From a virus (Duplodnaviria > Heunggongvirae > Uroviricota > Caudoviricetes), in IMG/VR virus record IMGVR_UViG_3300029577_000207: a stretch of 12,718 nt of DNA; one strand, given 5' to 3'. A model generated the notes under the pieces. That model ran no database searches. It was not told the origin of the DNA and worked only from the letters and a program-made list of their open reading frames with translations. Below are positions 2,630 to 8,319 of this stretch, one piece after another (position 1 is the first letter of the stretch; every line of letters starts with the position of its first letter). A program made the translations under genes and the position numbers.

Positions 2630-2785
2630 TTACTCCTCAGGTTCGTAAGCTGTGAAGACAGCGACCTCCGTCTGGCCGGTTCGGATTCGTACCTCGCAGA
2701 GGTCTTTCCTCGTTACCAGTGCCGTCACTATGACGGTTAAACAGATGACGATCAGGGCGATTAACATCGCCTTTTGCTGCTTCAT
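2630..2785 (-). CDS. hokD: Hok-family type I toxin (51 aa), HokD/RelF-like
   Basis: Translation MKQQKAMLIALIVICLTVIVTALVTRKDLCEVRIRTGQTEVAVFTAYEPEE matches HokD as I remember it. AAGGAG 9 nt upstream of the ATG at 2785. An in-frame upstream ATG at 2842 gives the 70-codon frame listed in the ORF track (mok-like leader). Confidence 0.85.
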   Translation of the reverse strand: MKQQKAMLIALIVICLTVIVTALVTRKDLCEVRIRTGQTEVAVFTAYEPEE

Positions 2786-2834
2786 AGCCTGCTTCTCCTT
2801 GCCTTTCGGCACGTAAGAGGCTAACCTACATGTG

Positions 2835-2906
2835 TCTAGCATGAAATTGGCCTCAGATTAATGTTAAGCGTCTTGCAGGACGCGTAATGTTAACTGGGGC
2901 TTTTCT
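2835..2906 (+). ncRNA. Putative Sok-like antisense RNA to the hok leader (boundaries approximate)
   Basis: + strand promoter-like TTGCCT (2799-2804), 17-nt spacer, TAACCT (2822-2827), antisense to the hok leader and mok-like start; small hairpin 2868-2883 and a T-rich run at 2900-2908. Inferred from hok/sok architecture, not from a recognised sequence. Confidence 0.3.
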
Positions 2907-2960
2907 CTATCTGCCGTTGGTGTTCATGCCCGAGGCAGATAGCCTCAAGCACCCGCAGCC

Positions 2961-2989: not shown

Positions 2990-3467
2990 TATGAAATCAG
3001 TCAGAAAGGCGATCCATAAGAACAATAGCAAGACAATAAATCGCCATTACAGCCGTAATAGCCAGCGCACATTTGAGAACCAGCACCACAACCTCCTGTA
3101 TTGGACGTACACCAGTCCTGATGAATATGAGGCTGTCTCGTCAGTGATTCAATACAACTATTGGGTATAGTTTCTCTGATTTTTTCTGTGGAAATGGGGC
3201 TCAACCACTAGTCACCACCTGCACTTCTTTTAATACGCAAAGTCCGACACAAGCTAACCTTTTAGTCCGCTTTGAGCGAACAACGGAAGTTCGGAATAAA
3301 TACTGACATAGACGTGTTTTCTTGCGGTGGCCAGTTTTTGTTGACCACTTCATTGTACCTAATCTTGGAGGTTGATCAGTTAACCCTCATTATTGCGGGT
3401 TAACTGAAGTTAGGCTTACTGTGTATAGATAAAACAAGCGTTTTTCCAAGTTACCTTAGAAAAAGCC

Positions 3468-4400
3468 TTAAGTTAGAAGCCGTTCCTCGTAATCGTCGGT
3501 TGTGGGCATTTTTCCGATCTCTGTCATGCGACACACTAATCGGGATAAAAGCACTCGTACCTCAATTATATGCTCAACTAAAAAGTTATCTGACGTAGCT
3601 CCCCCATGCACTGCCTTCGAACGGTAGTCATACAGCTTCTTAACCCTACGATAGGTGGCTAAACGATCAGGCCCTCGCTCCTCAAGATATGCTGCGGCCA
3701 TAAGAGCAAGACGAAAACGAAGCTCTGAATTGATTCCAAAGAGCGCTTCAAATCCTGCCCATAAAGCAGCAGCAGCCATTCTCAAATTCGCGTGTTGGTT
3801 GTGAGTAGTTAAAGAATCAATAGCGAGCCGGAATGCTGGTTGCTCTAGCAGATCTATCCAACGCTTGAGATTCTCTTGAACCCAGTCGAGAGACTCTACT
3901 GATATCTCTACACTTGGGCTTATTCTCCGAACTGCCGGCACGTCCTCAAGAAGTTGGACTTCACACGAGTTGGCTTGAAGAGCAGGGAATACATCCCAAG
4001 ATGCACTTGCTACTGCAGGAACAAGTATATCGGTGAGTGTGCGGCATCGGATCGCGGATATGATCCACCATCCGATAGTCAGGTCTGATTGAGAAAATTT
4101 CGACTCACTGCTTTGCAACGCAAGCTCATGCGTAACTGCGGGCATATGACGAGCAACAGCGCTGAGTAGCGACTTGCTCTTAAGCGCTTTGGCTAACTCT
4201 ATCTCTCCTGGTGGATGAAGTACCTCCCTTAATTCACCTACGTCTTGGAAAACATAAGGCCCGTTTCGAAACGTCAATCCTGACAAAGCGAAACAGATCT
4301 CATTCTGACTGGATAAACTAGATATTCGAGTTGCAGCGTATTTCTTGCGAGACTCGAAGTAGTTAAGTAAACCTGACAATTTTTCTTTGTTGATTTCCAT
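3468..4400 (-). CDS. Orphan 310-aa hypothetical protein; candidate HEPN-like effector (C-terminal R-x4-H-G motif)
   Basis: Uninterrupted 933-nt ORF with long non-coding flanks (189 bp upstream, about 620 bp downstream). No family recognised; motif YDYRSKAVHGG at residues about 258-268 (nt 3606-3623), about 50 residues from the C-terminus. Weak Shine-Dalgarno. Confidence 0.7.
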   Translation of the reverse strand: MEINKEKLSGLLNYFESRKKYAATRISSLSSQNEICFALSGLTFRNGPYVFQDVGELREVLHPPGEIELAKALKSKSLLSAVARHMPAVTHELALQSSESKFSQSDLTIGWWIISAIRCRTLTDILVPAVASASWDVFPALQANSCEVQLLEDVPAVRRISPSVEISVESLDWVQENLKRWIDLLEQPAFRLAIDSLTTHNQHANLRMAAAALWAGFEALFGINSELRFRLALMAAAYLEERGPDRLATYRRVKKLYDYRSKAVHGGATSDNFLVEHIIEVRVLLSRLVCRMTEIGKMPTTDDYEERLLT

Positions 4401-4422
4401 ATTCCCAAGCTTAGAATTTTCG

Positions 4423-4450
4423 CTATTGTGTACCGTATATTACACAATAG
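4423..4450. promoter_or_regulatory. Perfect 10-bp inverted repeat (candidate operator or RNA hairpin) upstream of the 310-aa gene
   Basis: CTATTGTGTA-ccgtatat-TACACAATAG, 23-50 nt upstream of the ATG at 4400, flanked by AGCTTAG direct repeats. Confidence 0.5.
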
Positions 4451-4589
4451 CTTAGTTAGGGCGTAGGCGTCCGCTTTTGGCACAAAGCGGACAACCACGC
4501 CAGATCTACCCTGTGCCATGAAAAATGAGAATGTCAATTCACTCCTGAACTAATGCTTTTTAATCTAGTAACGTCTAAAATACCTAACA

Positions 4590-4991
4590 TTATCCCTGAT
4601 AAAATGCCAGTATGCGCTGCATAACTTCACTCATCCGGCACTCGCGACAGATTATGTTTAGGCGACTGTCGTAGCGACGTATTTCTCCATCAGGTAACGA
4701 CCAGATAAGGTCCGGATCAATCACAGCTGTTTTCTTCACCTTTGCCCTCGAGAGTTTTTTGCGGGCGTTTTGCCAGTCCTTACGCGCCTGTTCAGACGGG
4801 AATAACCCGTAACCAGAGCTGTATACATCGCCACTGGCAACCAGCTCTCTGGCCAGAACGCTCATCAGATATCTTGTTGCCCCAGTTTTAGCTTCCAGTT
4901 GTCGTAATGTCTCGCGCCCACTCTGGCGTACGAGTTCCACCACCTGCCCTTTAATTTTTTCCCGCTCTTCTTGTGTAAAAACTTTTGCCAC
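4590..4991 (-). CDS. Small (133 aa) protein with a predicted N-terminal winged-helix DNA-binding domain
   Basis: GTG start at 4991 with GGAGGA immediately upstream, 40 nt after the O-like stop. N-terminal region QVVELVRQSGRETLRQLEAKTGATRYLMSVLARELVASGDV has the pattern of PapI/FaeA-like winged-helix regulators (pattern-level similarity only). Confidence 0.65.
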   Translation of the reverse strand: MAKVFTQEEREKIKGQVVELVRQSGRETLRQLEAKTGATRYLMSVLARELVASGDVYSSGYGLFPSEQARKDWQNARKKLSRAKVKKTAVIDPDLIWSLPDGEIRRYDSRLNIICRECRMSEVMQRILAFYQG

Positions 4992-5031
4992 AAGTCCTCC
5001 TGAACATTACTTTATGCCCTAAAATCAACAC

Positions 5032-5997
5032 TTATCCCCTGAAACCAGGCGGAATTTCTGTATCCGGTTCAGAAATATGATTCACACAACGCTGTACAGG
5101 TGAACGTCCCAGGCGGATGACCAGTTCGTCCCATTTTTTGCGGAGTTTTGACGGGCTCATGATGTTTTTTACCCAGAATTGATCTCGCTGTACCCGACCA
5201 AACATTTCGCAAATTTGTCTGTGGCTTCTGCCATCCAGCATCCGCATTGTGCGCACGTCATTGGCCCAGGCTGTCCAGTTAGGCTCTTTTGGTCGCATGA
5301 TCTCTCCATCGTCGCTGGCAGCCTGTTCGTAAAGGTTCACGATCCGCCCCCAAATCCACTGCGCACACGCCAAATCCTCCCTGCTACCCCACTGGCGTTT
5401 TTTCGCACTAAACACAACCGCGTCGGGGTTCCGGGTTAAAAAATCCTGTTCAGCCGTCTGCGGGTCCGGTTGCGAAGCTTCCGGACGAAAAGTGTTTTTA
5501 TTCTCTGTAGTAATCTCTGTTGTATTCTCTGTAAGATCATCAGGCCATTTTGACCCGATGACATTGGGTCGTTTTGAACCAATGGAGCGTTTCATTTTGA
5601 CCTCTTCCATCGTGTCATTTTGACCTGATGGAGCGGCGCATTTTGAACTGATGGATTCGCTCAATTTGCCACCATCTAAAAGCTCGCTCCCGTAGTTGAT
5701 CGTGTAGAAATTGGTCATGTCGCGCTTTGATTTATTGAGCTTTTCGCAACGTAAAAGCCCCAGCGTTTTCAGACTTGCAAACGCGCGCTTTAACGTTGAC
5801 TCTGACCAGAACGGGAACTGTTCCAGCCATTGTTCCGTTGTGTTGTAAATCCAGCGAACACCATCACATTCCATGCCGGAATTGGTATCTCTCAACCAGT
5901 AATGCAACTGCTGCAACACAATGGCTTCGTTTAAGCCAATCTTCATCGCAAGCTGTGTGTTTATAACCAGTGGGCGTTCAGCAAAAAGAAGGCTCAT
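5032..5997 (-). CDS. Phage replication initiator (lambda O-like replisome organiser) containing the origin iterons
   Basis: N-terminal winged-helix region typical of O/DnaD-like initiators (...LNEAIVLQQLHYWL...WSESTLKRAFASLKTLGLL...), five direct repeats inside the coding sequence, and position after the cro/cII-like genes. First ATG at 5997; the track start at 6051 is TTG. Confidence 0.7.
   Translation of the reverse strand: MSLLFAERPLVINTQLAMKIGLNEAIVLQQLHYWLRDTNSGMECDGVRWIYNTTEQWLEQFPFWSESTLKRAFASLKTLGLLRCEKLNKSKRDMTNFYTINYGSELLDGGKLSESISSKCAAPSGQNDTMEEVKMKRSIGSKRPNVIGSKWPDDLTENTTEITTENKNTFRPEASQPDPQTAEQDFLTRNPDAVVFSAKKRQWGSREDLACAQWIWGRIVNLYEQAASDDGEIMRPKEPNWTAWANDVRTMRMLDGRSHRQICEMFGRVQRDQFWVKNIMSPSKLRKKWDELVIRLGRSPVQRCVNHISEPDTEIPPGFRG
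5546..5654. repeat. Replication origin iterons: five direct repeats of about 23 bp, consensus CATTTTGA(C/A)C..ATGG
   Basis: Repeat units begin at about 5546, 5570, 5593, 5616 and 5639 with a regular 23-24 bp period. Adjacent 5483-5540 is AT-rich with three TCTCTGT repeats that encode a T-T-E-rich linker in the O-like protein. Confidence 0.8.
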
Positions 5998-6499
5998 AAT
6001 TCCATCCAGCTTTTTGTTGGTATTGCTGTCGATACGCAAGTTTGAAAGCAATTGCTTTTTCTATAAGTTCGTCAGTTTCACGATCCACTACGGCAGGATC
6101 AGCAAAAAGCAGTCCGGACTCCACCACATCGCCATATTCTTTGTTTAACCCGGCGATCATGTACGTAATGCTTTTCCCGTCACTAATTTCACGATACAAC
6201 CTGAAATCACTAATCCGGATAGCCTCCATAATTGCAGGCACTAGCGCCGTGAACTTTTCACGCTTATCCCTGGTGTCAATAGCCTTCCAGCGTTCGAATA
6301 TCTTCACTCGATTAACGCCAAGCGCTCGCTGATCAACCGCGCCACCTTCATCTGTGACACGCTGAACATCGATGTTCGGGCGCTCTTTCAAAGACCAAAA
6401 TGCTTCAGTGATTAATATCGTCGCCTGCTCCTGTGTCATTCCTGGTCGACATATCCAGGCATCCAGAGCCTCACGAGCCTGTTCAGGAGTGATTTTCAT
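5978..6499 (-). CDS. Early-right operon protein at the YdaT/CII-equivalent position (function uncertain)
   Basis: 173-aa ORF with ATG at 6499, overlapping the dicC 3' end by 17 nt and the O-like start by 20 nt. Assignment is by position between cro-like and replication genes only. Confidence 0.5.
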   Translation of the reverse strand: MKITPEQAREALDAWICRPGMTQEQATILITEAFWSLKERPNIDVQRVTDEGGAVDQRALGVNRVKIFERWKAIDTRDKREKFTALVPAIMEAIRISDFRLYREISDGKSITYMIAGLNKEYGDVVESGLLFADPAVVDRETDELIEKAIAFKLAYRQQYQQKAGWNYEPSFC

Positions 6500-6723: not shown

Positions 6724-6737
6724 TTGAGTTTTCTCAA
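6724..6737. promoter_or_regulatory. Palindromic operator TTGAGTTTTCTCAA in the dicC-dicA divergent promoter region
   Basis: Perfect palindrome in the 77-bp dicC/dicA intergenic region. The same GAGTTTTCTCA core recurs at 7260-7273 and inverted at 7296-7305 upstream of ydfA. Confidence 0.55.
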
Positions 6738-6787
6738 TGCTAATCACTCAAGGAATCTCAAGTCAAGGGTTATTAAGATATCTAAAT

Positions 6788-8261: not shown

Positions 8262-8319
8262 TTTCTGGTGACGTTTGGCGGTATCAGTTTTACTCCGTGA
8301 CTGCTCTGCCGCCCTTTTT
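8262..8319 (+). ncRNA. dicF: DicF small RNA (53 nt plus U-tail), ftsZ-targeting sRNA of the dicB operon
   Basis: TTTCTGGTGACGTTTGGCGGTATCAGTTTTACTCCGTGACTGCTCTGCCGCCC followed by TTTTT matches the DicF sequence as I remember it; located between ydfC and dicB. Confidence 0.85.

Follow-up and report, generated by a model that had tools for sequence, protein, structure and literature searches.

A DUF977/Ren-family gene closing the early-right module of an mEp460/Qin-type prophage, probably an accessory gene unlinked to the neighbouring HEPN cassette

Overview

The 133-aa gene at positions 4590–4991 (minus strand) of a 12,718-nt stretch of Caudoviricetes DNA (IMG/VR record IMGVR_UViG_3300029577_000207; the whole stretch is called the window below) is best read as a member of the DUF977/Ren family that stands last in the early-right module of an mEp460/Qin-type prophage, that is unlinked to the HEPN gene beside it, and that would serve, like lambda ren, as a dispensable accessory; this reading is given a probability of about 0.75. 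The evidence comes from the family assignment and predicted fold of the protein, from the place of the gene in seven phage replication modules, and from the distribution of the HEPN cassette and of the inverted-repeat sites around it.

The Gene and Its Prophage Context

In the ORF list, the gene opens with GTG, and reading of the sequence places a Shine–Dalgarno motif, AGGAGG, 4 nt upstream of this start (4996–5001, minus strand). PGAP-annotated DUF977 homologues begin at the identical position (MAKVFTQEE...), so that the ORF with a strong ribosome-binding site described in the first-pass annotation is real. The window corresponds to the early part of a lambdoid prophage of E. coli, of mEp460/Qin type. 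The closest complete genome is that of E. coli MY203L1, whose matching stretch is 99.9% identical to the window; on one side PGAP annotates an integrase, an excisionase, an 823-aa exonuclease, ydfD, dicB and the repressor, and on the other strand it annotates cro, a YdaT-family (CII-like) gene, a hypothetical (O-like) gene, DUF977, a HEPN-domain gene, hokD, rem, ydfU (DUF968) and Q. The DUF977 copy of MY203L1 (L001 7291–7696) has a 4-nt insertion and is annotated as frameshifted, whereas the window copy is intact; the frameshift is compatible with dispensability and gives no positive information on function.

A PR-like promoter, TTGACT-18-TAGCAT, was recognized by consensus scan upstream of cro (6737–6766, minus strand), and the terminator scan gave no better-than-chance match between this promoter and position 4590. 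Since DUF977 shares its orientation with cro, the YdaT/CII-like gene and the O-like gene, and no convincing terminator lies between, the promoter probably drives all four genes, and DUF977 would then be expressed on induction or infection. Elsewhere in the window there are a hokD/sok type I toxin–antitoxin locus (2630–2954, minus strand; Rfam sok 115 bits, Hok-family ORF 2630–2842) and the DicF small RNA (8263–8314, plus strand; Rfam 77 bits), both of which are expected of a Qin-like prophage. PADLOC was run on three proteins and returned no match.

Family Assignment

The gene had initially been put forward as a possible dedicated regulator, and its product turned out to belong to an already catalogued family. 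Residues 1–133 align with positions 1–131 of the 134-position Pfam DUF977 profile (PF06163) at 94.5 bits and E 7.2e-27, the gathering threshold being 22.1 bits, and the protein also matches PHROG 142, the “Ren-like exclusion protein” family (phrog_142, E 7.6e-44). Lambda Ren, taken from J02459, falls into phrog_142 too (E 1.6e-41). When the DUF977 and Ren alignments were compared with hhalign, a probability of 97.2% and an E-value of 4.2e-11 were obtained over 88 columns, which comprise the winged helix-turn-helix (wHTH) and a C-terminal motif; with BLASTP, this DUF977 motif aligns with lambda Ren over 20 residues at 50% identity (E 4e-6). The motif, N-x-I-C-x-E-C-R-x-S-x-x-M-x-R-x-L-A-F-Y, occupies residues 111–130 and is conserved family-wide. 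It is this motif, and not the recognition helix, that forms the most conserved part of the family, which suggests that the C-terminus contacts a protein partner.

Lambda Ren is a protein of 96 aa encoded by ren, the gene after O and P. In addition to the shared PHROG, it resembles the window protein in its N-terminal wHTH and in its C-terminal motif (N-x-x-x-x-E-C-R-x-S-x-x-M-x-R-V-L-A-x-Y), and its gene likewise closes the replication module and is transcribed rightward from PR. However, the two proteins are only about 24–31% identical, Ren is without the helix/linker insertion of 35–40 residues and the first Cys of CxxC, and it falls short of the Pfam DUF977 model. The regions behind the two genes differ as well: reading of the lambda sequence shows the intrinsic terminator tR2 after ren, whereas the window has an inverted-repeat site instead.

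Within DUF977 itself, LygF of phage mEp460_ev081 (VUF53746.1) is 98.5% identical to the window protein and of equal length. The PF06163/LygF proteins of E. coli, Shigella and Salmonella prophages, such as those of mEp460_ev081 and Rac-SA53 (lygF), are of the same family, with full-length HMM matches; most E. coli copies have 141 aa, whereas the window and mEp460_ev081 alleles end 8 residues earlier. DUF977-related genes are found in 3,999 of the 5,426 complete E. coli genomes. Among 1.84 billion representatives, the family comprises 95 clusters at 50% identity. The number rises to 864 at 90% identity, and nearly all of these carry the name E. coli “DUF977 family protein”, with a usual length of 141 aa; the named database matches come almost exclusively from Escherichia or Shigella. 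Truncated Ren fragments are labelled “MarR family” by PGAP. A literature search on LygF function yielded no usable account.

Predicted Fold

An AlphaFold2 model was obtained from a 25-sequence alignment of DUF977 and Ren-family proteins, with a mean pLDDT of 77.8. Three helices (residues 6–23, 28–35 and 39–52) and a beta hairpin (56–63) make up a winged helix, and the pLDDT of 89–94 across residues 11–70 makes this N-terminal prediction, spanning residues 6–63, a confident one. Beyond the wing, the model continues with a long helix (66–86), a low-confidence linker and two short C-terminal helices (115–131); the C-terminal half is weakly predicted, with pLDDT 51–65 across residues 81–120. Against the PDB, Foldseek matched the model to winged-helix DNA-binding domains only (GntR, AraR, MarR, DtxR/MntR, ArsR and Rpa2-WH), at probabilities of ~0.99 and E-values of 0.017 or weaker, the latter being modest because only ~65 residues align. 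The AraR DNA-binding domain (4egy_B), for instance, superposes at 2.5 Å over 64 columns. The search for solved structures related to the protein by sequence found none. A winged helix in DUF977 had already been predicted by Kinch et al. 2009 (PMC2686095).

The N-terminal segment had been described in the first-pass annotation as a winged helix of the PapI/FaeA type. The winged helix itself is borne out by the model and by Foldseek, and the PapI/FaeA label finds no support: Pfam gives no match to FaeA up to E 0.1, and no PapI or FaeA structure occurs among the top 50 Foldseek matches. PapI and FaeA are small winged-helix proteins, as is the 133-aa protein, but they are without the Ren-type C-terminal motif and are not genes of phage replication modules.

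Place in the Replication Module

The gene order in the window is cro, YdaT-like, O-like and DUF977. The O-like replication initiator lies at 5032–6051 (minus strand; longest ORF 339 aa, phrog_391, E 9e-93), and PGAP calls it at 5032–5997, as a protein of 321 aa, in a near-identical genome. The first-pass annotation had stated correctly that no helicase loader follows this gene: it ends at 5032 and the next gene is DUF977, and among the window genes tested or annotated none resembles lambda P, DnaC or DnaB. The 133-aa protein has no match to a loader family in Pfam, PHROG or NCBIfam, its fold matches being to wHTH domains only. The deposited genomes of phages mEp460_ev081, Tritos and HannyBb have the same loader-less module. 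No usable account of initiator-only replication modules was found in the literature.

The position of DUF977 at the end of the module, on the initiator strand, recurs in six other phages including lambda, and the genes in front of it vary. In the window, mEp460_ev081 and Tritos the O-like gene stands alone before DUF977; in Rac-SA53 it is accompanied by YdaV and DUF1627, and in Shigella phage 75/02 Stx and phiSTEC1589-Stx1c by a DnaC-like loader and DUF1627, DUF977 being last in each case; in lambda O and P are followed by ren as the last gene. The family therefore closes the module whether the loader is absent, DnaC-like or P, which argues that it is not a loader substitute.

The O-like gene has two further features of interest for replication. 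Six iteron-like units (CATCNGGNCATTTTGACCNGATG) are spaced at ~23 bp within it (5538–5676) and adjoin an AT-rich repeat (5496–5534); the array is presumed to be the origin. In addition, the C-terminal 20 residues of the O-like protein (...SEPDTEIPPGFRG) resemble the DnaT C-terminus (NF002770, residues 320–339 against positions 160–179 of the 179-position profile, E 0.006); the match is far below the cut-off of that model and thus amounts to a motif-level resemblance only. An initiator of this type, with an embedded iteron origin and a DnaT-like tail, presumably recruits host DnaB–DnaC, which would account for a module without a loader, and DUF977 would have no part in this step. The tail in particular may be the element that attracts the host primosome or DnaB–DnaC.

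The HEPN Cassette and Its Palindrome

Downstream of DUF977 and co-oriented with it lies the 310-aa HEPN cargo gene (3468–4400, minus strand), which encodes an N-terminal alpha/beta domain and a C-terminal HEPN-fold domain. The protein was modelled with a pLDDT of 92, and its HEPN assignment is supported by the four-helix fold together with the conserved R-x4-6-H motif, present here as an invariant R259-x4-H264. Its N-terminal domain has no match in the PDB, and the protein is absent from PADLOC, Pfam and NCBIfam. Homologues extend from Enterobacterales to Pseudomonas, Burkholderia and Firmicutes. The protein is a candidate single-gene abortive-infection RNase.

A palindrome had been noted at 4423–4450 between the two genes, and it does exist. 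Located at 4422–4451, 21 nt before the HEPN start codon, it reads GCTATTGTGTA-N8-TACACAATAGC, the arms being perfect over 11 bp and separated by 8 nt; 0.08 palindromes with perfect 11-bp arms are expected in a window of such size. It is absent upstream of the Enterobacter and Pseudomonas HEPN homologues. Several simple explanations of it were examined and rejected. As a CRP site it fails on reading of the sequence, since the gap from TGTG to CACA is 12 nt and not 8, and neither the palindrome nor the neighbouring inverted-repeat site A serves as an intrinsic terminator, there being no T-run and no match in the minus-strand scan. A consensus scan gave no minus-strand sigma-70 promoter for the HEPN gene, and Rfam gave no family in the intergenic region, its matches in the window being sok and DicF elsewhere. 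A second inverted repeat (3376–3407), its 14-nt arms 93% complementary, follows the HEPN stop at a distance of 61 nt; it has no T-run and is thus not a canonical terminator.

Comparison with other genomes places the palindrome in a mobile unit. Homology to mEp460_ev081 ends at ~4468 and resumes at 3279, and between these points the window carries a 1.2-kb HEPN cassette (~3265–4493) that contains the 310-aa gene, the palindrome and the inverted repeat at 3376–3407. In the same slot, mEp460_ev081 and Tritos have a different gene, of 444/449 aa, on the opposite strand. Together with its palindrome, the cassette recurs in 27 E. coli genomes at 99% identity or more, and the homology across its other copies spans window positions 3265/3273 to 4488/4493. 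It stands beside DUF977 in this prophage in 14 of the 27 and outside this prophage arrangement in the other 13; the four of these 13 that were inspected have it either in islands adjacent to tRNA-Pro or in an array on the yagU side, and DUF977 is missing from its surroundings. Conversely, one DUF977 allele (98%) adjoins at least five different cargos or cargo sizes in viral contigs. The mobility of the cassette without an adjacent DUF977 gene and the pairing of one DUF977 allele with at least five cargos lead to rejection of a dedicated regulator–effector pair. The HEPN gene is an independently mobile, exchangeable cargo cassette that is not linked to DUF977. At least one strain in which the cassette is located elsewhere, AR_0119, has DUF977 copies in its other prophages, and incidental binding or regulation of the HEPN promoter by the DUF977 protein in trans is conceivable.

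In the tRNA-Pro-adjacent islands (L004–L006), the sequence GCTTTTGGCACATAGCAGCC occurs at the edge of the HEPN cassette (~4550–4573) and again at the 5′ edge of a degenerate 82-nt “tRNA-Pro” (6540–6563/7315–7338), and it looks att-like. The 82-nt “tRNA-Pro”, whose 5′ half is replaced, is called by PGAP and not by ARAGORN, which found no tRNA genes at the island junctions. A tyrosine integrase lies near the repeat in one island (L006 1672–2886).

Inverted-Repeat Sites Around the Cargo Slot

The slot that holds the cassette is bounded by two related inverted repeats. Site A, GTCCGCTTT-TGGCAC-AAAGCGGAC (4469–4492), starts 97 nt downstream of the DUF977 stop, forms the right-hand junction and is the core of a longer imperfect palindrome (4453–4508). 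Site B, GTCCGCTTT-GAGCGAAC-AACGGAAG-TTCG (3265–3293), forms the left-hand junction. Their patterns are GTCCGCT-N2-TGGCAC-N2-AGCGGAC for A and GTCCGCT-N-GAGCGA-N-AGCGGA for B, and the homology breakpoints, both against other phages and against other copies of the cassette, fall at the centres of the two sites. To our knowledge, sites of the A/B type have not been described before, and the literature on cassette hotspots flanked by inverted repeats offered no usable account.

A scan of viral contigs for site A gave at least 120 contigs. In 40 of 120, a DUF977 gene ends 94–102 nt from the site, always in the same orientation; in the remaining 80, DUF977 is missing and the site adjoins tail-fibre, umuDC or P2-like genes. 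The other flank of site A is hypervariable, with 73 distinct 40-mers and a distance to hokD that ranges from 1.4 to 6.2 kb, and genes carried in the slot encode, among others, a SMODS cyclase, a RelA_SpoT protein, a HEPN/RES-NTD protein, a DUF7380/DUF4209 protein and a 202-aa integrase-only recombinase. In arrays on E. coli chromosomes and plasmids, several small cassettes are separated by composites in which 18 nt lie between A and B; in one such array (L007), sites are located at 775, 1547, 2736/2770, 3304/3346 and 4550/4592. Beside the Ren/DUF977 genes of lambda, Rac-SA53, 75/02 Stx and phiSTEC1589 the site is absent.

The arms of the sites are conserved in sequence and do not covary, and the two positions flanking the centre are often unpaired, for which reasons covarying RNA hairpins were rejected. 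Integron attC sites were also rejected, as there is no GTTRRRY/RYYYAAC pair in the right orientation and the arms read GTCCGCT/AGCGGAC, and TGGCAC is not part of a sigma-54 promoter, there being no TTGC at −12. The 202-aa tyrosine recombinase, which consists of the catalytic Phage_integrase domain only, occurs in some slots and arrays (L026 9378–9983, L116 5396–6001 and L013 1861–2466); it was rejected as the cognate enzyme of the sites because it is present in only 3 of the 135 loci examined.

The 22-nt site motif is also abundant in Xanthobacteraceae, Pseudolabrys and other alphaproteobacterial metagenome-assembled genomes, with several copies per contig (e.g., L158, L214, L219, L239 and L241 among L139–L258). 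In these genomes it is clustered in tandem with a second palindrome, GTCCGCTTTYGGGGGTAAAGCGGAC, and it often follows closely on genes of a paralogous set, the products of which have ...ADEVIE at their end and, on reading of their sequences, look like substrate-binding proteins of ABC transporters. This distribution is REP/BIME-like, and the occurrence of the same sequence in enterobacterial phages is surprising. Sites A and B may be recombination sites, REP-like elements, or both.

Proposed Role and Alternative Explanations

Lambda ren is dispensable for replication, and ren mutants are reportedly Rex-sensitive, a result attributed to Toothman and Herskowitz in 1980. By analogy with Ren, the most likely role of the 133-aa gene is that of a non-essential early accessory of the replication module, an analogy drawn across ~25% identity. 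According to Thomason et al. (bioRxiv 10.1101/2021.04.19.439022), lambda ren is transcribed from PR along with O and P, the gene is “likely involved in DNA replication”, and a two-hybrid assay shows that both O and Ren interact with the Rex proteins. The DUF977 protein would have DNA, a protein partner or both as its target, perhaps within the phage replication complex, and could help lytic growth to escape Rex-type exclusion; transcriptional control of the neighbouring gene would not be among its tasks. The idea of a replication accessory factor, which the first-pass annotation had offered as its second option, is thus plausible through homology to lambda Ren, whereas the stand-in for a loader finds no support.

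That the protein might replace the missing loader of the O-solo module was suggested by its place: it occupies the slot directly after the O-like gene where P or DnaC-like loaders sit in other lambdoid phages, and Ren is regarded as replication-linked by Thomason et al. (bioRxiv 10.1101/2021.04.19.439022). The proposal that a small DNA binder has taken the loader's place nevertheless fails to fit the other phages, in which DUF977 or Ren coexists with a DnaC-like loader or with lambda P, and neither in sequence nor in fold does the protein resemble P, DnaC, DnaB or DnaD. The frameshift in the closest genome and the dispensability of lambda ren point the same way, and a role as loader substitute is judged unlikely. 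A role as a general phage transcription factor at other promoters of phage or host, as in delayed-early or nin-region control, is improbable too; the wHTH fold is closest to MarR, GntR and ArsR-type regulators and PGAP gives truncated Ren fragments a MarR label, but there are no candidate operators common to the different phages that carry the gene, and the conservation of the C-terminal motif over the recognition helix points to a protein partner.

The remaining alternatives tie the protein to the DNA downstream of it and are less probable still. It could bind the adjacent GTCCGCT-TGGCAC-AGCGGAC repeat, as an architectural or accessory factor for cargo exchange or as an operon-end insulator; the 7-N2-6-N2-7 anatomy is that of a protein-binding site, and the constant spacing and orientation of DUF977 relative to the site in 40 of the 120 contigs would fit. 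Two-thirds of these contigs, however, carry the site without DUF977, the site is abundant in Alphaproteobacteria, and four phages with Ren or DUF977 are without it, which makes such a binder very unlikely. The wider proposal, that A and B are cassette-exchange recombination sites which swap defence-type cargo among lambdoid and P2-like prophages, islands and plasmids, with the DUF977 protein as the phage-encoded site binder, is most improbable as a whole: the junctions at the site centres and the hypervariable cargo are compatible with its cassette-exchange part, and the occurrence of sites and DUF977 genes mostly without each other makes the link to DUF977 unlikely. Equally hard to credit is the regulator–effector pair of the first-pass annotation, in which the protein would be dedicated to controlling transcription of the 310-aa gene through the 4422–4451 palindrome. 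The winged-helix fold, the statistically unusual perfect palindrome so close to the HEPN start, and the adjacency and shared orientation of the two genes speak for it. Against it, the palindrome belongs to the mobile cassette (3265/3273–4488/4493), with the phage backbone resuming at 4468; that cassette is known from 27 genomes and adjoins DUF977 in 14, the four others inspected having no DUF977 neighbour, whereas DUF977 is found in 3,999 genomes and beside many cargos. HEPN homologues reach Pseudomonas, Burkholderia and Firmicutes, and DUF977, with its 95 clusters at 50% identity, has named matches almost all in Escherichia or Shigella.

Significance

The reading of the 133-aa gene as a Ren-like accessory places it in a very common and already catalogued phage family, and the finding as given matters little in itself. 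It adds one example to each of three questions: what function the Ren family serves where lambdoid replication modules close; how an O-like initiator with a DnaT-like tail replicates without a phage-encoded loader; and what the conserved inverted repeats are that bracket the hypervariable, defence-rich slot downstream of DUF977.
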